Assembly: GCA_963739395.1 (NCBI GenBank)
Contig: CAVUAE010000001.1
Location: 1,094,056 to 1,158,055, forward strand
DNA: 64,000 nt
Reading direction: 5' to 3'
From: an uncultured Chloroflexia bacterium
GTDB taxonomy: Bacteria; Chloroflexota; Dehalococcoidia; Dehalococcoidales; RBG-16-60-22
In this document: positions 3,708 to 52,417 of the stretch, piece after piece
Layout of the letters: every line of letters begins with the position of its first letter
Position numbering within the stretch: position 1 is the first letter of the stretch
Notes under the pieces: model-generated
What the model was told of the DNA's origin: nothing
The model's input: only the letters and a program-made list of their open reading frames with translations
Databases searched by the model: none
Translations under genes and position numbers: made by a program

Positions 3708-4058
3708 ATGGAATGGATCGGCGAAACCGATTATAAAACCAACGTCACCTTTATGATCACCCGTGTGATGGCGCCGTGCAAAATGGAAGAGTACCCCCAT
3801 TCTCACGACTTTGACATGTATTTACATTTCATTTCATATGATTATGAACATATGGATGACCTGTTCGCGGAGATAGAAATCGGTTTAGGCGAAGAGCAGG
3901 AAATGCATACCATCACCTCACCAGCCAGCGTCTATATTCCCGCCGGATTAATACATTGCCCACTTATTTTCAAAAAAGTGGATAAACCCATTATTCTCTT
4001 TCATACCAGCATTGCGTCTAAATATGTAAAAAAAGAAGATTCAATTAAAAAACCTTAG
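3708..4058 (+). CDS. Small cupin-like hypothetical protein
   Basis: PHSHDFDMYLHF and YIPAGLIHCP resemble cupin metal-site motifs. No RBS at ATG 3708. An RBS-led ATG at 3639 is in frame but separated by TGA 3699-3701 (see findings). Confidence 0.5.
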   Translation: MEWIGETDYKTNVTFMITRVMAPCKMEEYPHSHDFDMYLHFISYDYEHMDDLFAEIEIGLGEEQEMHTITSPASVYIPAGLIHCPLIFKKVDKPIILFHTSIASKYVKKEDSIKKP

Positions 4059-6057: not shown

Positions 6058-8229
6058 TCAACTAGCAAATTGGCTAATATCCCTGTAAAGTTGTTTTAAA
6101 TGATGGTCGGATAAATCTATCAGAGGTTCATACATGAAGGAATTGAGGTGGATAGCTTCCGGTGTCATCATTATGACCCTAGACAATAGTTTTCTAGATT
6201 CTTTGTCTGACGGAAATTTCTTTACAAAGTTGTCGAATAGCACTCTCGTTTGATTTCCACTAATATCTACTGTAACCGCGGGGTCATTTATTTTTTTTAT
6301 GATTGCTTTTTCAGCTTTGAGCCTTATTGCGATTGACAAAACGATTTTATTCTCAAGGTTAATAGTTTCGACATTATTGAGACAACACTCATCCGCCTGC
6401 TGAAAAATAAGAGAAATTACTGTGGTATTATCTGAGGTGATTGAAGGCGCAGGCGTAAATATAGTTCCATAGATAGATGCTAAATCGTTTAATGTAATCG
6501 AGTCTGTATCTGATTTGTAATGGAGTAATGACGTTAACTTTAAATACTCATGGTTAGATCGCCCTTTAGTATATTCAATAATGTTACGCGCCATTGGTAT
6601 AGTAGCTATTAGACAATTTTTATTGCCAGGCAGTTGATCTTTCCAACGTGTAAATGGAGTTCTTAAGCAATCAGCTTGTACCAATTTCACTTCTGATTCA
6701 GACTTGATTGACATCAGGCAATTCTCCCAATATACAGGAAGTCGGCTTTGTACTGTTCTAAAAAAATCAAAGTTATGAGTTAACAATAGAATTAGAAATT
6801 TTTTGGTTTCCTCTATTTCTTTCAAGTATTCAATGATCGCAAATTTGTTTTTGTAGTCAAAAGAATCTGCGATATCATCTAATACTAGAATAGTTTGATA
6901 ATCCTCTGTCTCACGTGCTCTTATCTCGTAAATTATATCTAATATATACAAAGCTCTTTTCTCGCCTGTACTTAATACACTTAACAATTCCACTTTATTC
7001 ATCTCACAGCGGTCAGTGCCATCTATATAATTAAAAGTTATTTTAGGTGTAATTTCCTTAAGAATCACTTCTTCTTGATTAGCTACTTCAATTTCGAAGG
7101 GTACTGTAAAACGTTCTTTAAAAATATTGATAACCTCTCGCCAACGAGTTTCTTGACTTCTTGCCTTATTAACAATTGAATCTATTTGTTTTTTACCTTC
7201 CTTAAAAACCTCAAGAAAATTTTTATAAAGTTCCTTCTCAGAAATTAGATAAGAAATCCATAGTTTCTTTTTGAAAGTATCAACACTAGCCAATTCAGGT
7301 AAAATTTTCATATTGTCTAATAGGTATTGATGAAACTTACGAAGTTCAGCATTACCCATAATCTTGAAATCAATTGAATTAAATTTATCCTTAAGTTCGG
7401 GATTATTTAATATTCGGTTTTCCTCTTCGGAAATAACTGCATCAAAATCAGATTGCGATGTAATTTCTGTTTTTTTAGAAGATGAATCTGATAGTAAAAT
7501 AGCATGTTTAGCGGAAAAGTATTTATTAGCTTTTAGGTTTTTTGATACAGTAGATGCGTTGTAGTGATTGAAGCCACCCTTTCTGAAATAATTTGAACTG
7601 TCGATAATTTCATTGTATTTATCAATATAGTCACACAACAAGGAATGCATGCCTGGTGATTTTAAAAAGGGTTCAGTCTTATCATTTATTACTTCGGAAT
7701 AAAGAATATCAGCAAAATCTGACGATGATGAATTAACATTATCTTGTAGTTTTGATAATAATAATGAACTGTCATTTGATTTATCATCGAAAGCTGATAG
7801 CATTAGTTGTTCAGCGTTCTTTTTTGTATTAGAAACTTTACCAATAGCTGATAATAGAGTAAGTCTAGAACTTTCAATAGATTTTGCTGTTGATTCGTAT
7901 TGTTTCCTTAATTCTTCGTCTACAAGCAAAGTAGATATACGTTCAGATTCGTATTTTTCGTCATATGAGTCAACGACAAATATATGAAGAGGGTTTAAAG
8001 AGTTACCTGTTTCGTCTTTAATATTACATAGTGCTGTTCTTTGAGTATAAATAGCGTCTCTAGGTTCTCTTGATTGGCTAAGGTCATTAAATACTTTTGC
8101 AAGGGATGTTTTCATTGCACCATTGGGAGCATAGAGTAAGAATGAGTTCGCATTAGTAGTAGCAAAGTCAAATTCATGTTTAAGTGCTTTTATTCCATAA
8201 CAATTTTTCAAATCAACGGAAATTTTCAT
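6058..8229 (-). CDS. AAA_13-like ABC-type ATPase with long coiled-coil insert and C-terminal effector-like domain (PrrC/RloC-like architecture)
   Basis: Degenerate Walker A LLYAPNGAMKTSLAKVF, ABC signature LSTGEKRALYIL, Walker B ILVLDDIADSFD, H-loop LLLTHNFDFF. About 300 aa of helical, low-complexity sequence lies between Walker A and the signature motif. The C-terminal 200 aa contain RNIIE...H...H. Confidence 0.65.
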   Translation of the reverse strand: MKISVDLKNCYGIKALKHEFDFATTNANSFLLYAPNGAMKTSLAKVFNDLSQSREPRDAIYTQRTALCNIKDETGNSLNPLHIFVVDSYDEKYESERISTLLVDEELRKQYESTAKSIESSRLTLLSAIGKVSNTKKNAEQLMLSAFDDKSNDSSLLLSKLQDNVNSSSSDFADILYSEVINDKTEPFLKSPGMHSLLCDYIDKYNEIIDSSNYFRKGGFNHYNASTVSKNLKANKYFSAKHAILLSDSSSKKTEITSQSDFDAVISEEENRILNNPELKDKFNSIDFKIMGNAELRKFHQYLLDNMKILPELASVDTFKKKLWISYLISEKELYKNFLEVFKEGKKQIDSIVNKARSQETRWREVINIFKERFTVPFEIEVANQEEVILKEITPKITFNYIDGTDRCEMNKVELLSVLSTGEKRALYILDIIYEIRARETEDYQTILVLDDIADSFDYKNKFAIIEYLKEIEETKKFLILLLTHNFDFFRTVQSRLPVYWENCLMSIKSESEVKLVQADCLRTPFTRWKDQLPGNKNCLIATIPMARNIIEYTKGRSNHEYLKLTSLLHYKSDTDSITLNDLASIYGTIFTPAPSITSDNTTVISLIFQQADECCLNNVETINLENKIVLSIAIRLKAEKAIIKKINDPAVTVDISGNQTRVLFDNFVKKFPSDKESRKLLSRVIMMTPEAIHLNSFMYEPLIDLSDHHLKQLYRDISQFAS

Positions 8230-15577: not shown

Positions 15578-15768
15578 TTTTATTCCTCCTATAAACTAAT
15601 TTACTTAAAAATTCCACTCGGATTATTTTTACGATAAACACCTCCTTAGAGAGTCTTAGAAGCGTGGTATTTTTTGATAATAATAGGAATATTGTAAGAG
15701 CTTATTTTAAGCCTGTCAAGGTAACTAATAAATAAAATGATGTTTTTGCGTAAAATTATTTATGAGTA

Positions 15769-15797
15769 TTGACAAATATCTCTTTTCGTATTATTAT
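15769..15797 (+). promoter_or_regulatory. Sigma70-like promoter, probably producing a leaderless mRNA
   Basis: TTGACA (15769-15774) - 17 nt - TATTAT (15792-15797). ATG at 15804 is 7 nt after the -10 element. Confidence 0.55.
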
Positions 15798-15803
15798 GCG
15801 CAA

Positions 15804-16076
15804 ATGACGATGTCGCAGAACGATATCAGACCCAGATTCGTTAAAGGGCAGAAGGTTGTCATCAAACCCGTTAATGAAAAAGGCGCTTCCAAACGGGAAT
15901 ATGACGTTAATGAATTCGCCGGCGAAATCGGCGAAATTTCAAACTACTATTATATTAACGTGGGTATCAACCAGGTTTTCTTTCTTTATAACGTGAAAGT
16001 TGGCAAGGAAAAGAAGGAAATAACGGTTTATGAGGACGAACTAGAGCCGGTTTTGTGGGAAGAGGAAAAGAACTAG
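15804..16076 (+). CDS. Hypothetical protein (90 aa)
   Basis: Start moved from 15762 to ATG 15804 because the consensus promoter lies inside the longer ORF. Confidence 0.5.
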   Translation: MTMSQNDIRPRFVKGQKVVIKPVNEKGASKREYDVNEFAGEIGEISNYYYINVGINQVFFLYNVKVGKEKKEITVYEDELEPVLWEEEKN

Positions 16077-21266: not shown

Positions 21267-21608
21267 TTATTTTTGTGAAGTTACACTTTTTGATTTAGCG
21301 TATAACTCTAGAAGTTTGAACATCTGATCAAGATGAAACTGAATTCTGCCATTCTCATAATCTGGAATTTTACTAATGATAAATCCGGGTTTTCCCTTAT
21401 TTTTTCCACCTATGCCAAATCGTTGTTCTTTGTCTTTAAGCGCCATTTTGTTTATATAATCGAGTGTTTCTCTAGCTGCAATACTTAAAGCAGTGGAGTA
21501 CATCTGTTTATAAAGCTTATCAATCTCTCCCTTATCAAATAGTTTCTTAATATTTAAGCTCAAGTTTCCTATGATATTTTCTACTATGTTTATTCTAGGT
21601 GAAACCAT
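21267..21608 (-). CDS. AT-rich hypothetical protein (113 aa) immediately downstream of nrdJ
   Basis: Starts 10 nt after the nrdJ stop on the same strand. Codon usage and composition differ visibly from nrdJ. No recognisable motif. Confidence 0.55.
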   Translation of the reverse strand: MVSPRINIVENIIGNLSLNIKKLFDKGEIDKLYKQMYSTALSIAARETLDYINKMALKDKEQRFGIGGKNKGKPGFIISKIPDYENGRIQFHLDQMFKLLELYAKSKSVTSQK

Positions 21609-24252: not shown

Positions 24253-25080
24253 CTATCCATCTAAAAAAGAAAGAGATACAATATATCTATTTACTCCGTA
24301 CCCAAACCCTTTTATTTCAGAAGGGAAACGTTTTTTCCCCTTACCGAACTTATATTGTAAATCTCCCTTTAGCAGTGTATTGAAATTGTAGGCATCATGT
24401 AATATAGAGGGTGGATTTACGTTTTTATTTAATGGTGAAAATAAAGTATTACCAATCTTTTTCTTCTTAGGCCATGATAACTGAAGTGAATTTGGTTGGT
24501 TTTTACGTGGTGTCCATTTTGAAACATAACAAGGTTTTTGACTAGTTTCAGAGACTCTTATTGCAGCTGATTGTATTGAGACTTTGAATAAATCAGCCAA
24601 ACGCTCAATAGATTGTATTGACGTTCCTAGTTCATCTAAGTATTTGCTAAACACTGATGTTGGCATCAATAACTCTGTGGCAGCCTCATCACATAGTTTT
24701 TCTACGACTTTAGAACGTTTTCTTTGTACAACTTGCGGATTGAATGTCCTGTGTTCAATAGTATTTATATATTGTTCCAATTTTAACGCACTATATAATA
24801 AATGTCCGATTTCATGGGCACAAGAAAAATTTTGTCTTACCAAAGGGTCATTTATATTTAGTTTTATTTTAGATCCACTATCAAATCGTAGAAGGACACC
24901 TCCAGATTTACCCGCTTTGCCAAGGTCCGTTTTTTCAATGCTTTGAACTCCAACTAAAGAAGCATATTCTTCTGATAAAAATGGTGGGTTATCATGCCCT
25001 CTTTTGGCTATCAACTCGGTTACAAGCTGTCGCGCCCGTTCAATAATTAGTTCAGAAGCTGTTTCTAACTTAATAACCAT
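24253..25080 (-). CDS. ImmA/IrrE-family (COG2856-like) zinc metallopeptidase with an uncharacterised C-terminal domain
   Basis: HEXXH motif in FSCAHEIGHLLYS, followed by the downstream EAATELLMP typical of ImmA/IrrE. About 95 aa of unknown C-terminal sequence. AT-rich. Confidence 0.75.
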   Translation of the reverse strand: MVIKLETASELIIERARQLVTELIAKRGHDNPPFLSEEYASLVGVQSIEKTDLGKAGKSGGVLLRFDSGSKIKLNINDPLVRQNFSCAHEIGHLLYSALKLEQYINTIEHRTFNPQVVQRKRSKVVEKLCDEAATELLMPTSVFSKYLDELGTSIQSIERLADLFKVSIQSAAIRVSETSQKPCYVSKWTPRKNQPNSLQLSWPKKKKIGNTLFSPLNKNVNPPSILHDAYNFNTLLKGDLQYKFGKGKKRFPSEIKGFGYGVNRYIVSLSFLDG

Positions 25081-25082
25081 AA

Positions 25083-25421
25083 TTACTTTTCGTATTTTGA
25101 CATATAGTCGTTTATCTGCTGCTCTTTTAAAGGAATGAGTTTCTTCATTTCTTCATCCATTACTAAGTCAATAGGATCTTTGTTTTGTCTTCCTTCTACT
25201 CCATATAGAGCTCGGATAAGACTCTTACGTTGGGCATCATTTGTTGTTTTACGTGGTTCATGTATACAACTGTGTAGCACTTCTTTTAAGGAATAAGGAA
25301 GATAATCATATTTTTTTATTGGTATTTTATAATACCCGAACCACAGTCTAATGTCTTGCCATAACGTTCTTTTTGTGATTTGCCTATGTGTCTTTTTATT
25401 GATAAATTCTTCTATCTCCAT
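25083..25421 (-). CDS. AT-rich hypothetical protein (112 aa), partner of the ImmA-like gene
   Basis: Its stop lies 2 nt from the ImmA-like start. RBS GGAG before ATG 25421. No obvious HTH seen by eye. Confidence 0.55.
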   Translation of the reverse strand: MEIEEFINKKTHRQITKRTLWQDIRLWFGYYKIPIKKYDYLPYSLKEVLHSCIHEPRKTTNDAQRKSLIRALYGVEGRQNKDPIDLVMDEEMKKLIPLKEQQINDYMSKYEK

Positions 25422-26157: not shown

Positions 26158-27474
26158 ATGATGAACTACCAGCAAGCTCTGGACTATTTATTGAAGTTCG
26201 CTGATTATGAGCGCCTGCCGCGCTCGGGAATTGTGTGGGACCTGAAGCGTATCGAACGACTGCTGGCAAGACTGGATAATCCGCAGAACTTCGCGCGGTC
26301 GGTACATGTAGCGGGGACGAAAGGGAAGGGCAGCACTTCTGCGATGATAGCGTCGATTTTGCATAGTGCCGGTTATAAAGTGGGACTTTATACCTCCCCC
26401 CACCTCCTCTCTTACACAGAACGCATACAAGTTAACGGCAAGCCCATCGCCGAGGCAGACTGGGCGAAGCTGGTTGAAATTATACAGCCGCATGTCGAAG
26501 CGGAGAATGCGCTGGGCGACCTCGGGCAATTAACGACTTTTGAAATTTTTACGGCGATGGCGTTCCTCCATTTCCAGCGAGTGAAGGCGGACTGGCAGGT
26601 GCTGGAGGTGGGCTTAGGGGGACGGCTCGACGCCACGAACGTAATCCAGCCGCAGGTGTGCGTGATAACGTCCATCAGCTTCGACCACATGGACGTACTG
26701 GGGGATACGCTGGCGAAAATAGCCGGGGAGAAATGCGGCATCATCAAGCCGGGGGCGGATGTCGTGACCGCGCCGCAGTTCCCGGAAGCTCTAGAGGTCA
26801 TCAAGCGGGTGTGTACGGAAAAGAACGTCCGCCTGATAAAAGTGGGGCAGGACGTTACATGGGAGAGGGTTGGCTTTAATCAAAAGGGGCAGAGTTTCCG
26901 CGTGAAGGGACTGAAGGGAAAATATAAGTTAAGGATTCCACTGCTGGGTTTGCACCAGCTGGAGAACGCCGCCAATGCCGTCGCCGCCGCGGAACTGCTC
27001 CAGGAAAAAGACGCGAAGATATCATCCAAAAACATCGCCGAGGGACTAGCCAAAGTGGACTGGCCGGGTCGCTTACAGGTCTTGAGGAAAAAGCCGTGGG
27101 TCGTCGTCGACGGGGCGCATAACGCTTACTCGATGAAGCGACTGGTCGAGGCGATAGAGGAGTATTTTAAGTACGACAAGGTGAAGCTGATTTTAGGGTT
27201 CGGGGCGGATAAAGACATAGCGGGCATGGCGGCGGAGGCGGCGGAATTAACGAGCGACATCATCCTGGTGGCGTCCAAGCACCCGCGGGCGGTAAAGGCG
27301 GAGGCTTTAGTAGCCGAGTTCCAGAAGCACCGGGTGACGCCGCGCTTGGCGGAGAGCGTAAAGGACGCGATGAAACTGGCGCTGGGGGAGGCGGGACCTA
27401 AAGACCTTATCTGCGCGGCGGGGAGCATCTTTGTGATTGCCGAGGTGATGGAGGGATTTAAAAACCCTCTCTAA
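26158..27474 (+). CDS. folC: Bifunctional folylpolyglutamate synthase/dihydrofolate synthase
   Basis: HVAGTKGKGST P-loop, GLYTSPHL, LEVGLGGRLDATN, DGAHN motifs. Confidence 0.92.
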   Translation: MMNYQQALDYLLKFADYERLPRSGIVWDLKRIERLLARLDNPQNFARSVHVAGTKGKGSTSAMIASILHSAGYKVGLYTSPHLLSYTERIQVNGKPIAEADWAKLVEIIQPHVEAENALGDLGQLTTFEIFTAMAFLHFQRVKADWQVLEVGLGGRLDATNVIQPQVCVITSISFDHMDVLGDTLAKIAGEKCGIIKPGADVVTAPQFPEALEVIKRVCTEKNVRLIKVGQDVTWERVGFNQKGQSFRVKGLKGKYKLRIPLLGLHQLENAANAVAAAELLQEKDAKISSKNIAEGLAKVDWPGRLQVLRKKPWVVVDGAHNAYSMKRLVEAIEEYFKYDKVKLILGFGADKDIAGMAAEAAELTSDIILVASKHPRAVKAEALVAEFQKHRVTPRLAESVKDAMKLALGEAGPKDLICAAGSIFVIAEVMEGFKNPL

Positions 27475-27541
27475 CTCTCCCTTTACAAAAGGGAGAGGAT
27501 GAATTTTTACTCTTTCGTAAAGAGGAACCAAGGGAGTTTTT
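27460..27541. repeat. Direct repeat A flanking the DUF559 gene
   Basis: AAAAACCCTCT..CTCTCCCTTTACAAAAGGGAGAGG...CTCTTTCGTAAAGAGG.A.CAAGGGAGTTTTT contains two hairpins. A near-copy lies at 27897-27985. Confidence 0.8.
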
Positions 27542-27896
27542 ATAAATTGTTAAGCTTTTGTTCAATTACTTCAATTACACCATCAATATTGTTGAATATA
27601 TCTATATTCGTGAACCTTAGAACTGTTAATCCCATACTCTCTATAAACTCATCTCTGATCCAATCGTATTTTTTTGTATTGTTGGAAAAATGTTGTCCAC
27701 CATCTACTTCAACCACTAACATTGCTTTATGGCAATAGAAGTCAGCAATATATTCTCCCAAAGGCTTTTGACGTGAGAACATAAAACCTTTTAGCTGTTT
27801 CATCCTAAGCTTAGACCACAATAATTTTTCAGCATCTGTCATGTTGTTTCTAAGTTCTTGGGATAGCTGCTTCAATTTTGGGTTATATAGATGCAT
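27540..27896 (-). CDS. DUF559 (Vsr-like endonuclease fold) protein
   Basis: LRNNMTDAEKLLWSKLR...GFMFSRQKPLGEYIADFYCHKAMLVVEVDGGQH matches the DUF559 pattern. Confidence 0.85.
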   Translation of the reverse strand: MHLYNPKLKQLSQELRNNMTDAEKLLWSKLRMKQLKGFMFSRQKPLGEYIADFYCHKAMLVVEVDGGQHFSNNTKKYDWIRDEFIESMGLTVLRFTNIDIFNNIDGVIEVIEQKLNNL

Positions 27897-27985
27897 AAAA
27901 ACCCTCTTTTGTCTCCCTTTAAAAAAGGGAGAGGTAATTCCTTTTCCGTCTCCCTCTTTCGTAAAGAGGGATAAAGGGAGTTTTT
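27897..27985. repeat. Direct repeat B flanking the DUF559 gene
   Basis: Same two-hairpin unit as 27460-27541, in the same orientation. Confidence 0.8.
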
Positions 27986-27990
27986 CTAAC

Positions 27991-28014
27991 GCCGAGGTGA
28001 TGGGGGGGTTGAAA
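27991..28014. repeat. Second copy of the folC 3' terminus
   Basis: GCCGAGGTGATGGGGGGGTTGAAA against folC's GCCGAGGTGATGGAGGGATTTAAA at 27439-27462 (21/24 identical). The two copies bracket repeat A, DUF559 and repeat B. Confidence 0.75.
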
Positions 28015-28023
28015 CATGCAAAA

Positions 28024-28926
28024 TTACTTCAGTCCTAACGGAAGATAATTAGCTACAAATCGATATGTATCTGCACCTGAATCCGTAGTTTCAATTTTAT
28101 TATGGAAAAATGAATGAATAAAATTTATTGTTGAATCATTTATATTATAGGTTGTACCAAGAATTCTTTTATTTGATAAATCGGCATTATTAATAAGTAA
28201 TTTTAGAGTTGTTTGATCATACCCAAAACCTATAAACACAAGATTAAAAGCATCTCTTATTGCTGCTTGAGCATCACGGAAATCATTTGTATCATCTAAC
28301 CGATCTGATGTAATTCTGATACCTTCCGCAGCATTTTTAAGTATTCCCGCAACACTAAAACTCTCTCCGTAGTTTATTTCTGGATAACGGCCAAGACTTC
28401 CATGAGCATGTATAATTTTAAGAGTAGCTAGTTTTTGCGTGGCATGTTGGGTTAAGTCATCTGGGCAGTTATACTGTATATTTTTGTGTAAAAAGTGTTC
28501 TAGTGATCTATCGTAATTTAAAGTAACAAACACAATATTATTCGCATTTGGTTTATTATTTTCAAAATCTAACACATTGTATAAATGACTATACCAATCT
28601 TTTTGAGGAAATAAATAATCTGTTCTTTCGAGAGGTAATAATGTATAGGCTATTGCATATGCACCGATTTCTCTAAATTTGCTCTTTTTTTCAAGAAATA
28701 TATCTATTGTTGGATAACTAGTGTATTTTAAAGCTTCAGCGAAATTGTCGGCAAGTAAATTGTCAAATTTATTATGTGCAAGAGTATTAACGTGATTTAT
28801 ATTGATTCCAGAGATCATTATGGTTTTAAGTTCTGTACCTAATGGTAGGCCATAAGGTTTACTCGCTCTAGCCCCAAGAACAAATACTGTCTTTTTATTA
28901 AGATCGATTGGTTGTATTTCTACCAT
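28024..28926 (-). CDS. Stand-alone SIR2-like (SIR2_2 / ThsA-type) protein, putative NAD+-consuming effector
   Basis: Four blocks are collinear with the ThsA SIR2 domain: VFVLGARASKPYGLP (GAGxS loop), VTLNYDRSLEHFL (TTNYD), IIHAHGSL (catalytic His), VFIGFGYDQTTL. Very AT-rich. ATG 28926 lies 3 nt after the ribD stop, with SD GGAGGAG inside the ribD 3' end. Confidence 0.7.
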   Translation of the reverse strand: MVEIQPIDLNKKTVFVLGARASKPYGLPLGTELKTIMISGININHVNTLAHNKFDNLLADNFAEALKYTSYPTIDIFLEKKSKFREIGAYAIAYTLLPLERTDYLFPQKDWYSHLYNVLDFENNKPNANNIVFVTLNYDRSLEHFLHKNIQYNCPDDLTQHATQKLATLKIIHAHGSLGRYPEINYGESFSVAGILKNAAEGIRITSDRLDDTNDFRDAQAAIRDAFNLVFIGFGYDQTTLKLLINNADLSNKRILGTTYNINDSTINFIHSFFHNKIETTDSGADTYRFVANYLPLGLK

Positions 28927-28929
28927 TTT

Positions 28930-30015
28930 TTATCTCCTCCCCTCCACCACAATATCCACCCCGCTCTTATAAACCTTCTCAACCTTTAACTTATAAGCCT
29001 TAGCTAAGTCCGTAATATTAAGCTCGCCGACGGCGTCGGTGCCTTTGCCCAAGATTTTGGGGGCGATAATCACCACCACCTTATCCGCCAAACCCAGTCT
29101 TAAGAAAGAGGTAATCACCTCCCCGCCCCCCTCCACCAAAAGCGACGTGATTTCACGCTCGCCTAGAGATTTCAACAGTTTTTTTAAGTCCATTTTATCC
29201 TGACTATCCGGCGGGATAATTAAGACCTCGATGCCCATCTTTTGCAGGGCGGCGAGCTTGGCTTTAGTCGCATGGGTAGTGGTGGCAACGATAGTTTTGG
29301 CTTTATTTTGGTTTTTCAGCACCTTAGCGTCGAGGGGAATCCTTAGCGTGGAGTCCAGAACTATGCGGAGTGGATTTCTGCCTTTGACTAGTCGCGTGGT
29401 CAGCTCGGGGTTATCTTTTGTCACCGTGCCTGCGCCGACTAAAATAGCGTCGTTAGTAGCGCGTAGTTGATGCGCCAGTTTCTGGGACTCCGGGGAGCTA
29501 ATCCAGCGTGAGGAGCCTTTAGCGGTGGCGATGCGCCCGTCCAGCGTCTGCGCCCACTTAAGCGTGACGTAAGGGATGCCGGTAGTACGGTGCTTGATAT
29601 ACTTTTCGTTCAGAACAAGGCAGTCCGCCTCCAGCACGCCAACCGTCGTCTTAATCCCCTTCTGGTTCAGGAGTTTCACACTTTCGCCGCGCATCTTGGG
29701 GTCGGGGTCAAGCATGCCGATAACTAAACGCCCGATTTTACTTTTGATAATGGCGTCGGTGCAGGGTGGGGTCTTGCCGTAATGGCGGCAGGGCTCTAAA
29801 GTAACGTAAAGCGTCGCTCCGGCAACGGATTCTTTAGCTTTTTTAAGCGCATCCACCTCCGCGTGGTCGAGTCCAAAGGCGTGATGATACCCCTCCCCGA
29901 TAATCCTCCCGTCCTTCACGATGACGGTGCCCACCATAGGATTGGGGGAGGTTTTGCCCAGTCCCTTACGCGCCAGCTTTAAAGCCAGCCGCATGTATTG
30001 TTCGTCATTAACCAT
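28930..30015 (-). CDS. ribD: Riboflavin biosynthesis deaminase/reductase
   Basis: HAEVDAL and TLEPCRHYGKTPPC deaminase Zn motifs plus a C-terminal reductase domain. Start moved to ATG 30015 (MVNDEQYMRLAL...), because the longer ORF merely translates the tandem repeat. Confidence 0.92.
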   Translation of the reverse strand: MVNDEQYMRLALKLARKGLGKTSPNPMVGTVIVKDGRIIGEGYHHAFGLDHAEVDALKKAKESVAGATLYVTLEPCRHYGKTPPCTDAIIKSKIGRLVIGMLDPDPKMRGESVKLLNQKGIKTTVGVLEADCLVLNEKYIKHRTTGIPYVTLKWAQTLDGRIATAKGSSRWISSPESQKLAHQLRATNDAILVGAGTVTKDNPELTTRLVKGRNPLRIVLDSTLRIPLDAKVLKNQNKAKTIVATTTHATKAKLAALQKMGIEVLIIPPDSQDKMDLKKLLKSLGEREITSLLVEGGGEVITSFLRLGLADKVVVIIAPKILGKGTDAVGELNITDLAKAYKLKVEKVYKSGVDIVVEGRR

Positions 30016-30027
30016 AGTGAGGCTATT

Positions 30028-30160
30028 ATAACGGAAAATGGTGAGTCTGTCGAACCATAACGGAAAATGGTGAGTCTGTCGAACCATAACGTAAAGAGGT
30101 GAGCCTGTCGAACCATAACGTAAAATGGTGAGCCTGTCGAACCATAACGTAAAGAGGGGA
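30028..30160. repeat. Tandem repeat, 29-nt period, about 4.5 copies
   Basis: Unit ATAACG[G/T]AAA[A/G][T/A]GGTGAG[T/C]CTGTCGAACC starts at 30028, 30057, 30086, 30115 and 30144, with no spacers. Confidence 0.9.
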
Positions 30161-30238: not shown

Positions 30239-30314
30239 GGGCCGTTAGCTCAGTTGGTAGAGCAGTGGACTTTTAATCCATTGGTCGCAGGTTCGAATCC
30301 TGCACGGCCTACCA
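30239..30314 (+). tRNA. tRNA-Lys (anticodon TTT), CCA encoded
   Basis: GGGCCGT-TA-GCTC..GAGC-A-GTGGA-CTTTTAA-TCCAT-TGGTC-GCAGG-TTCGAAT-CCTGC-ACGGCCT-A-CCA. Confidence 0.93.
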
Positions 30315-51166: not shown

Positions 51167-52417
51167 TTAAGTTCGATTTAAAACTTGAAAGCCATTTCCT
51201 CGAGGAAGATAGTTTAATTCAAATGAACTTGGTAAAGGATTTTGAGCATTGTTATTCCTAATACAAAACAGTTGCCACCACAGTGTTTGATTCGAATCAT
51301 TGGGATTGATATTTTTCTTTTGAATTATTTGGTGCCATATAACAACGCCACTCACTAAGGGTGCGGATTTTAGAGCTTGAGCTATACTTTGACCGAGATT
51401 GAAAAACTGATTTAGACCGTAGAAATCGGGCGTGTATAAATAAATCACAGCAGGAGAGTTTTGTGTCAATTGTTTACGTGCATCATTAATAAGGTCATAT
51501 ATGGCATTAACATGATCAGGGGTTATTTCAAAATGTACGACAACAACTTTAGGATTTCGGTAATAAATTAAACCATTACGATTTTCCTTGTGACATTTAT
51601 GGCATATTCCTACATAAGTAGTTTGATTACCTACACCACAATTAATCATAAAATTCCTAATTGGCTCAGGAACATGTTCTTCTGGACCGAAAGGTTCGAA
51701 TGCGGTTGTTACTATATCTTTATCGTTAGGTAAGAGAATAGTTGTTTCAACTTCGAAGCTACCAATAGAACAAGAAAAAGCCTCACCTTTTAGTAATAAT
51801 GCCTCTATACTTCTCACAAGATTAGGGATGACAGTTTTATTTGGTATTTGTTTTGTTGATATATATATCCCGTAATTAGTAGTTGAGTGGTCTAATAAGG
51901 AACTAACAAGGGAAATTATTTCTGAACGCATATCATCAATCAGAATAAATTGTGGTGTTATAATGTTTCTTGCTTTACATTCGATATATGCAGGAAGTCC
52001 TCCAATAGATATTTCAAAGTCAGGCGTGGCTGATTTACCAGCTTTTAATGAAATAATGGGTTGTTTTAGTATATTTACGTAAGACCAAGCAACTGTTGCT
52101 TCTATTTCCGTAGCACAAAATTCCGCAATGGATTGTTTTGACCGTTTTATAAGTTGGTTAAAGAAGACATCATCGGTGATAACTTTTCCATCTGAACGAC
52201 GAGTCGGAAAATTAGATAATTCTCGCATAATCTTGGAGAAACTCAAAGCCCTTACTATATCTTGATTTACACTCGGATCTTTAGACGCATATAGAGCGCG
52301 TTTTAAGGGATGCATTTTTTCTTTGCAGTTATTGTTCCACTGTGGACCAAGCTGTACTTTCAGCCATTTTAAGAGAGTATTTACATCGGCATTTTCAGTA
52401 TCAATTAAGTAGTTCAT
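51167..52417 (-). CDS. AT-rich orphan protein with a PD-(D/E)xK nuclease-like motif
   Basis: 416 aa. E(x)n...TPDFEISIGGLPAYIECKARN fits the E...PD...ExK pattern. The rest is unrecognisable. Flanked by AT-rich non-coding DNA. Confidence 0.5.
   Translation of the reverse strand: MNYLIDTENADVNTLLKWLKVQLGPQWNNNCKEKMHPLKRALYASKDPSVNQDIVRALSFSKIMRELSNFPTRRSDGKVITDDVFFNQLIKRSKQSIAEFCATEIEATVAWSYVNILKQPIISLKAGKSATPDFEISIGGLPAYIECKARNIITPQFILIDDMRSEIISLVSSLLDHSTTNYGIYISTKQIPNKTVIPNLVRSIEALLLKGEAFSCSIGSFEVETTILLPNDKDIVTTAFEPFGPEEHVPEPIRNFMINCGVGNQTTYVGICHKCHKENRNGLIYYRNPKVVVVHFEITPDHVNAIYDLINDARKQLTQNSPAVIYLYTPDFYGLNQFFNLGQSIAQALKSAPLVSGVVIWHQIIQKKNINPNDSNQTLWWQLFCIRNNNAQNPLPSSFELNYLPRGNGFQVLNRT

Follow-up and report, generated by a model that had tools for sequence, protein, structure and literature searches.

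A stand-alone SIR2_2-type gene behind ribD in a Chloroflexota genome belongs to a large, horizontally spread family without a recurrent partner

The DNA analysed here, referred to below as the window, is a stretch of 64,000 nucleotides from contig CAVUAE010000001.1 (positions 1,094,056 to 1,158,055) of an uncultured Chloroflexota bacterium, and it carries, between the housekeeping genes ribD and folC, an AT-rich gene for a 300-residue protein with a single SIR2_2 domain. An earlier note, made from the letters of this DNA, had described the product as a minimal stand-alone SIR2-like protein of the ThsA type, translationally coupled to ribD and perhaps paired with a neighbouring nuclease-fold gene. 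Here, we describe a computational analysis of the protein, its relatives and its genomic surroundings. The protein belongs to a large, unnamed family of partnerless proteins of about the same length, which we regard, with moderate confidence, as probable effectors that cleave nicotinamide adenine dinucleotide (NAD+).

The gene and its junction with ribD

The features of the locus on which the analysis turns are the following, where L001 and L092 denote the corresponding loci of two related genomes.

28024-28926, minus strand: gene for a stand-alone, single-domain protein of the SIR2_2 type; open reading frame (ORF) of 300 residues, ATG start, Pfam SIR2_2
28930-30087, minus strand: ribD, bifunctional deaminase/reductase (TIGR00326, 7e-106; RibD_C, 3.6e-57)
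28934-28945, minus strand: Shine-Dalgarno-like run GGAGGGGAGGAG within the last ribD codons (…VEGRR*), 7-9 nt before the SIR2 ATG
26158-27474, plus strand: folC, folylpolyglutamate synthase, convergent with the SIR2 gene, 76-78% identical to the genes of L001 and L092
27540-27896, minus strand: gene for a DUF559 protein (Vsr-like endonuclease fold; Pfam, 1.4e-36)

The SIR2 gene has a G+C content of 0.31 and a G+C content at third codon positions (GC3) of 0.18, as against 0.51-0.56 and 0.57-0.70, respectively, for the flanking genes ribD, folC, nrdR and ribonucleotide reductase (RNR). Its homologues reach E-values of 1e-113 and all share a common start at an MxEIQPIDL N-terminus; thus, the AT-rich ORF is real and not a chance reading frame. 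On the minus strand the junction with ribD reads …GTG GAG GGG AGG AGA TAA AAA ATG, in which the ribD stop codon TAA (28932-28930) is followed by AAA and then by the SIR2 ATG at 28926. The proposed coupling, with the ATG 3 nt past the ribD stop and the Shine-Dalgarno run inside ribD, therefore agrees with the junction sequence. A scan for promoters and terminators returned no signal between ribD and the SIR2 gene and nothing that exceeded background, and a search of Rfam found no riboswitch or other RNA element near the SIR2 gene apart from a tRNA-Lys.

Fold, conserved residues and distribution of the family

The Pfam profile SIR2_2 (PF13289) matches residues 132-248 of the protein with 30.4 bits, above its gathering score of 24.5, and the Pfam scan detected no other domain. 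Canonical sirtuins match profile PF02146 and possess a Cys4 zinc module; the window protein gave no match to PF02146 at E<=1 in the same scan, and because it contains a single Cys it lacks such a module. A structure predicted by AF2 (AlphaFold2) from a 36-sequence alignment consists of one compact α/β domain, with a mean predicted local distance difference test score of 92.5 and a predicted template-modelling (TM) score of 0.91. Searched against the Protein Data Bank (PDB) with Foldseek, this model gave 67 matches at E<=1e-3; among the 50 listed, all were immune-type SIR2 defence proteins or FAM118B, at TM scores of about 0.45-0.57 and identities of 12-15%. The proteins matched include E. coli SIR2-HerA (the best), KomC, the SIR2 subunit of SPARSA, DSR2, human FAM118B and BcThsA. 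A PDB sequence search with the window protein alone returned nothing relevant; a profile of the family retrieved EfAvs5 (9jap, E 3.9e-5) and KomC (E 1.9e-3), and in both alignments the GAGxS loop, the TTNYD…E block and the hhhGY strand coincide. The PADLOC SIR2 models match the window protein weakly (best PDLC04087, 9.5e-8, with partial coverage), and the PADLOC Aga_SIR2 models matched five of 36 family members, at E-values of at least 1e-5 only. Thus, the protein belongs to the immune-type SIR2_2 ('SIRim') fold class and is far from every characterised member. Some database entries for members carry just the name 'SIR2 family protein'.

Conservation was counted over more than 315 aligned family members. 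The four motif blocks named in the earlier note occur in the expected order, supply the family's most conserved alignment columns, and align block by block with the solved SIR2 NADases KomC and EfAvs5. These blocks, and the codons of particular interest within them, are:

residues 17-22, LGARAS: NAD-loop block
residues 135-143, TLNYDRSLE: Asn block
residues 171-179, IIHAHGSLG: His block
residues 230-237, VFIGFGYD: strand block
28867-28869, minus strand: codon 20, AGA (Arg), at the second Gly position of the GAGxS NAD-binding loop; unique to the window copy
28516-28518, minus strand: codon of Asn137 (TxNYD), the active-site Asn position, which aligns with the Asn of EfAvs5 TTNYD
28402-28410, minus strand: codons of His173-Ala-His175; H175 is the canonical 'HG' His and H173 the family-invariant His

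Nearly invariant positions are G18 and A19 (each 315/315) and S22 (313/315) in the NAD loop, N137 (327/327), Y138 (326/327) and R140 (321/327) in the Asn block, H173 (324/326) and G176 (323/326) in the His block, and G233 (323/323) in the strand. To these are added D75 (322/323) and E100 (321/325), which together with Y112 and R140 form a set of family-specific invariant residues outside the core catalytic motifs. The residue equivalent to Asn137 in EfAvs5 is N141, and the N141A mutant loses defence (PMC11897194). The catalytic His is more complex than first described: His175 is present in this copy, but the position is not invariant (His in 258 of 326 members, Tyr in 67), and it is H173, two residues upstream, that is the invariant His. 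In the alignments H175 corresponds to KomC H146, and H173 to the His of the EfAvs5 LHING motif; EfAvs5 has an Asn at the canonical His site and is an active NADase (PMC11897194). Of the catalytic Asn and His, whose loss among homologues the earlier note had named as evidence against its proposal, N137 and H173 are near-invariant.

Comparison with known systems places the family closest to Avs5 by profile. Avs5 (EfAvs5, PDB 9jap) is the best profile match among solved structures; the GAGxS, TTNYD..E and hhhGY blocks align, and in both a His precedes the canonical 'xG' position by two residues. The similarity is nevertheless remote: Avs5 proteins, of 849-869 residues, also contain a NOD ATPase and a sensor at the C-terminus and are activated by filamentation, whereas the window protein corresponds to the SIR2 domain only (query 122-268 against chain 149-290) and ends at residue 300. 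KomC of the Kongming system (PDB 8zsf, 264 residues) is likewise a SIR2-only protein with an identical order of motifs, including NYDRxxE, and was recovered by Foldseek at E 2.9e-5 as well as by the profile, but it requires KomA, KomB and deoxyinosine triphosphate (dITP) and is encoded in a three-gene operon, and the window family has no recurrent neighbour. By structure the best match is SIR2-HerA (Nezha, PDB 8sub; Foldseek E 2.4e-6, query TM score 0.55), at 14% identity; that protein has about 400 residues, its dodecamer assembles on a hexamer of HerA, and herA is always the neighbouring gene. ThsA of Thoeris shares the SIR2_2-type NADase fold (8bto, Foldseek E 3.3e-4), but it has a SLOG/Macro domain and an adjacent TIR gene, thsB, and the window protein has neither. 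The 'ThsA-type' label is thus withdrawn, the nearest relatives being Avs5 and KomC by profile and SIR2-HerA by fold. DSR1 and DSR2 are proteins of about 1,000 residues with a large C-terminal sensor, unlike members of this family (median 304 residues), and SPARSA combines an APAZ fusion with an adjacent short pAgo, whereas the window protein has neither an extra domain nor a recurrent neighbour.

Vertebrate FAM118A/B proteins resemble the window protein in size and in having a single domain (9r0p, TM score 0.52), belong to the same immune-type SIR2 branch and form filaments (PMC12700824; bioRxiv 10.1101/2024.09.18.613514). They are eukaryotic and only 12% identical, and a direct kinship lacks support; human FAM118B alone shows very little processing of NAD in vitro (PMC12700824).

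A word-indexed search retrieved 147 relatives, nearly all of 285-330 residues, about half of which have a precomputed PF13289 match. An exhaustive search of representatives clustered at 50% identity gave 6,881 matches at E<=1e-3, 3,673 at E<=1e-10 and 162 at E<=1e-30, and almost all of these, too, have about 300 residues; for the 328 members retrieved, the median length is 304 residues, with a 5-95% range of 272-343. In a set of reference genomes, one per species, 532 stretches encode a relative. The phyla represented are Chloroflexota, Planctomycetota, Lentisphaerota, Acidobacteriota, Proteobacteria, Bacteroidota, Omnitrophota and Gemmatimonadota, together with one archaeon.

In the 75 loci with enough flanking DNA, the SIR2 gene differs in G+C content from the remainder of its locus by -0.096 on average; values below -0.05 occur in 61 loci and values below -0.10 in 34, and only three loci have a positive value. 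Contexts vary even between relatives that are 52-61% identical: the gene follows small ORFs in one relative (P0007, 61% identical), lies between genes without assigned function in another (P0016, 57%), and between thyA and a DoxX/gyrA block in a third (P0024, 54%). In further loci it follows serS (L002) or starts 3 nt past the stop of hsdS, a specificity gene of a type I restriction-modification system (L006), and an upstream gene on the same strand lies within 30 nt of the SIR2 gene in 16 of 77 loci. No family member was found in the INPHARED phage collection, and on plasmids only proteins from Rhizobium and Agrobacterium matched, at 23-30% identity. Ten IMG/VR contigs encode distant members (27-34% identity), some beside terminase, portal, endolysin or DnaB genes; such members are rare on true phage contigs. 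The family is thus an accessory one, spread horizontally as a single AT-rich gene. Two planctomycetal loci each carry two family members, side by side in L014 (8990-10903) and two genes apart in L007, which suggests local duplication.

No fixed partner accompanies these genes. When ORFs were called in 80 genome loci and four neighbours on either side were clustered by BLAST, the largest cluster comprised seven loci, with scattered positions. In 162 non-redundant loci from genomes, metagenomes and viral contigs (three neighbours on either side, E<=1e-3) there was no recurrent neighbour, the largest cluster comprising five loci (3%), and in a Pfam scan of the genes directly upstream and downstream each family was limited to at most two of about 77 loci, and HerA was not among them. 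Matches to PADLOC models or defence candidates occur beside some members (type I and type IIG restriction-modification, mad2/5, PDC-S15, PDC-S54, DUF3800). The stand-alone state is therefore a property of the family and not an accident of the window genome. The description of a solo SIR2 protein of about 300 residues without a sensor domain accordingly holds in the domain scan, in the predicted structure and across the family, and both the profile search and the structural search that the earlier note had proposed place the protein in the SIR2 superfamily. In the literature we found no description of a comparable defence protein from bacteria that consists of a stand-alone SIR2.

Proposed function and its alternatives

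The conserved Asn, the His residues and the Rossmann loops make binding and cleavage of NAD+ the most likely activity by homology. We favour, with moderate confidence, the reading that the SIR2_2/'SIRim' protein and its partnerless relatives cleave NAD+ and probably act as self-contained accessory effectors of a defence-like kind. Members of the family would bind NAD+ in a Rossmann cleft lined by the GAGxS loop, N137 and H173/H175 and would then cleave it, a chemistry to which Asn137, His173/175 and the homology to EfAvs5 and KomC point. As there is neither a sensor domain nor a partner, the SIR2 domain would itself have to recognise a trigger, and the likeliest seat for this is the helical insertion (residues ~30-125) that contains the family-specific invariant Asp75, Glu100 and Tyr112. 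The most plausible means of control would be oligomerisation, as in ThsA, KomC, Avs5 and FAM118B filaments. In one Chloroflexota lineage the gene has settled between ribD and folC, where it is probably transcribed from ribD and translated from the Shine-Dalgarno run in the last ribD codons, the DUF559 gene having come later and independently.

To our knowledge, every mechanistically understood SIR2 effector is restrained by a separate part, be it SLOG, HerA, pAgo, STAND, KomAB or the C-terminal region of the DSR proteins. The existence of thousands of partnerless SIR2-only proteins of about 300 residues raises the questions of how a potentially lethal NADase is silenced and of how its catalytic domain alone triggers it. 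If active, these proteins would rank with the smallest immune proteins that deplete NAD on their own, and they would be a handy model of SIR2 activation. The family could be the effector module that is fused to STAND ATPases in Avs5, in a free-living form. A bolder proposal, which we put forward only tentatively, is that of a widespread minimal immune module in which a lone SIR2 domain performs both sensing and NAD+ depletion, carried as an AT-rich one-gene cassette that inserts behind housekeeping genes, at their 3' ends, and is transcribed along with them.

Several observations weigh against the NADase effector reading. All characterised SIR2 defence effectors known to us use a separate sensor domain or partner. 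Across 36 family members the PADLOC SIR2 models reach 1.4e-11 at best, with partial coverage, and in NCBIfam the protein has no model. In 21% of members a Tyr stands at the position of the canonical 'HG' His, so that the chemistry could differ from that of classic SIR2 NADases. Models of defence genes match only some 10% of the immediate neighbours, a figure that has no control set as a baseline, and many SIR2 loci are flanked by housekeeping genes, so that an enrichment in defence islands does not follow. Finally, the state of the window copy and of a sister copy, described below, may be a sign of gene decay in this lineage.

The second Gly of the NAD loop had been read as Arg, and the codon, AGA at 28869-28867, bears this out; the change carries more weight than the earlier note gave it, being confined to this copy. 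At position 20 the 315 aligned sequences have Gly in 309, Ala in two and Asp in one, and Arg occurs in the window protein only, whose loop reads GARAS where relatives have GAGAS. The corresponding codon in L001 and L092 is GGA, and a single G-to-A transition suffices for the change. The Ala preceding Arg20 is equivalent to A41 of EfAvs5, which contacts NAD+ in a predicted EfAvs5-NAD+ model (PMC11897194). It is a reasonable inference that Arg20 would hinder NAD+ binding, and the window copy may be weakened or inactive through the Gly20-to-Arg change. A sister copy, the ribD-linked SIR2 gene of L094 (1764-2648), is 73% identical to that of L001 and is cut short by an in-frame stop at codon 109 (…LFP*KDWY), where relatives have Gln; Arg20 and this nonsense codon together make loss of function in the ribD-linked lineage plausible. 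We therefore give real but less than even weight to the possibility that the window gene is an inactivated remnant in which G20R abolished NAD+ binding and further decay is pending, a possibility that is compatible with the explanation preferred for the family. It is opposed by the intact ORF, in which, among 33 columns with a conservation of 90% or more, that of Arg20 is the sole one to deviate, one being the family median, and by the recurrence of Arg20 in two assemblies. The finding at the level of the family merits testing, but the copy in the window may be impaired.

Next among the alternatives, we think it unlikely that the protein is an NADase that responds to a small-molecule activator produced elsewhere, by an unlinked sensor or by a phage. 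KomC, a SIR2-only protein activated via its partners and dITP, is among the best matches, and the invariant D75, E100, Y112 and R140 outside the catalytic core are a candidate ligand site; however, the protein lacks SLOG, Macro or any other known ligand-binding domain, the 162 loci hold no recurrent neighbour whatever, and horizontal spread as a single gene across distant phyla is hard to square with a host-encoded partner.

We likewise find it improbable that the family does not hydrolyse NAD+ in bulk but ADP-ribosylates or deacylates a specific target, or binds another nucleotide. The replacement of the canonical His by Tyr while the His two residues upstream is invariant, the low similarity to all characterised NADases (12-15% identity, TM scores of about 0.5) and the minimal activity of the structural neighbour FAM118B alone speak for it. 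The Asn, the upstream His, the GAGxS loop and the hhhGhG strand nevertheless fit the pattern of NADase-type SIR2_2 proteins, EfAvs5 is active with the same upstream His and a non-His residue at the canonical site, and, with its one Cys, the protein has no zinc ribbon and no module for a peptide substrate.

The linkage to ribD and the DUF559 insertion

A ribD-linked SIR2 gene occurs in five related genomes, namely those of the window, L001 (a Chloroflexia metagenome-assembled genome), L092/L093, L094 and L174, which amount to five of about 175 loci. The order ribD-SIR2-folC-nrdR-RNR is common to the window, L001 and L092; the folC genes of L001 and L092 carry Mur_ligase and FOL3_C domains, and folC is the other border of the conserved ribD-SIR2-folC order. 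The likely true start of the window ribD is near 30015, where its homologues begin, the long ORF call being 385 residues, and the gene is 68-80% identical to ribD of L001 and L092. Pairwise amino-acid identities among the window, L001 and L092 are:

SIR2: 60-61%, in all three pairs
ribD: 68-80%
folC: 70-78%
nrdR: 75-83%
RNR: 83-85%

Judged by the genes on either side, the window and L092 clearly stand nearest to each other, and a neighbour-joining tree of close SIR2 relatives is star-like, with the ribD-linked copies forming no exclusive clade. The SIR2 genes of the window, L001 and L092 have GC3 values of 0.18-0.25, as against 0.55-0.85 for their flanks. The SIR2 gene may evolve fast at the ribD locus while its AT-richness is maintained; alternatively, SIR2 alleles at this locus may have been replaced repeatedly from an AT-rich pool.

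The junctions differ in detail between these genomes. The Shine-Dalgarno run is conserved in L001, where the junction reads TAA AA ATG, and in L094, where the spacer has 5 nt; in L092 and L174 it persists ahead of the ATG in a remnant that does not code. The ribD gene of L092 ends in …EGKSNPSTQ* and is followed by a hairpin and then by the non-coding old tail (SGVDLVLEGRR, with a GGAGG run) at the SIR2 ATG, and in L174 a 270-residue ORF without family match is inserted behind ribD and a degraded tail remnant precedes the ATG. These remnants, listed here, indicate that the Shine-Dalgarno-bearing tail of ribD has been kept with the SIR2 gene, even once it no longer codes, and the hairpin and the extra ORF mark the ribD 3' end as a hotspot of insertion.

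L092, 7880-8003: ribD-tail remnant with GGAGG run directly before the SIR2 ATG
L174, 1990-2052: ribD-tail remnant with GGAGG run directly before the SIR2 ATG

The locus thus exemplifies the colonisation of core-gene 3' ends by single accessory genes. Of the tie to a riboflavin gene suggested in the earlier note, the anatomy stands, with the SIR2 gene behind ribD and its Shine-Dalgarno run inside it; a functional tie does not, and the linkage is positional and expression-related, confined to one lineage, with no sign of a riboflavin function. A housekeeping role in riboflavin or folate metabolism, for which the gene order kept in five genomes and the Shine-Dalgarno run inside ribD could be cited, is accordingly very improbable, given the rarity of the linkage and the other settings of the gene (after serS, hsdS, thyA, ORFs without assigned function and others), its low GC3, the star-like divergence at 60% that is incongruent with the flanks, the stop codon in one ribD-linked copy and R20 in another, and the extra genes and hairpins inserted between ribD and the SIR2 gene.

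Two further elements lie at the other end of ribD. A tRNA-Lys gene (anticodon UUU; 30239-30314, plus strand) lies between ribD and an SDR (short-chain dehydrogenase/reductase) gene and is divergent from ribD. A 29-nt tandem repeat (30028-30153; 4.3 copies, 93% matches) is located at the ribD 5' end or just upstream of it; each unit contains promoter-like hexamers, TCGACA-17-TATGGT/TATAAT, and the 385-residue ribD call runs through it.

The DUF559 gene lies 127 nt from the SIR2 stop, beyond a set of hairpin repeats. Its surroundings contain the following features.

27439-28014, no strand: DUF559-bearing insertion of ~550 nt, with direct repeats at its borders (88-100% identity, spacing 436-552 nt)
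27439-27462 and 27991-28014: duplicated folC 3' tail, 88% identical
27476-27498 and 27912-27934: hairpin repeat unit 1
27510-27545 and 27954-27989: hairpin repeat unit 2

The remnant of the folC tail reads AEVMGGLK, as against AEVMEGFK at the folC C-terminus. The hairpin repeats around the DUF559 gene are of the type TCTCCCTTTA(C/A)AAAAGGGAGAGG, and a comparable hairpin is found after ribD in L092. Since the border repeats include a duplicated folC tail, the DUF559 segment represents a separate insertion event. A phmmer search for DUF559 homologues among all ORFs of 80, and then 172, related loci (6-10 kb around the SIR2 gene) gave no match, and the gene is absent from the four syntenic genomes with a downstream flank on record (L001, L092/L093, L174); the contig of L094 stops inside the SIR2 gene. 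Thus, the DUF559 gene is an independent, later arrival and not a partner, and neither it nor any other small partner, both of which the earlier note had thought worth seeking, accompanies the homologues (0 of 172 loci for DUF559; largest neighbour cluster, 5 of 162). A two-gene system in which the SIR2 protein works with the DUF559 nuclease-fold protein, suggested by two adjoining AT-rich genes on the same strand, is effectively refuted by this absence, by the hairpin-bearing spacer between the genes and by the repeats that bound the DUF559 segment as an insertion of its own.

Other AT-rich islands in the window

Low-GC ORFs (0.31-0.40) also occur at 21267-21608 (minus strand), 51167-52417 (minus), 3708-4058 (plus) and 15762-16076 (plus); these four lie between housekeeping genes of normal G+C content and gave no Pfam or PADLOC match. 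An AT-rich island at 24253-25421 (minus strand; G+C 0.32-0.35), between RNR and nrdR, encodes a 275-residue Peptidase_M78/ImmA-like protein (Pfam, 5.7e-14; PADLOC capP, 2.6e-23) and a 112-residue ORF without family match. The island is absent from L001 and L092, where nrdR directly overlaps RNR. At 6058-8229 (minus strand) lies a 723-residue ORF with a G+C content of 0.32, a full-length match to PADLOC PDC-S46 (E 6e-262) and a weak SMC_N match. PDC-S46 is a candidate single-gene defence family in PADLOC, and this ORF is a further solo, AT-rich, defence-like insertion in the window genome.

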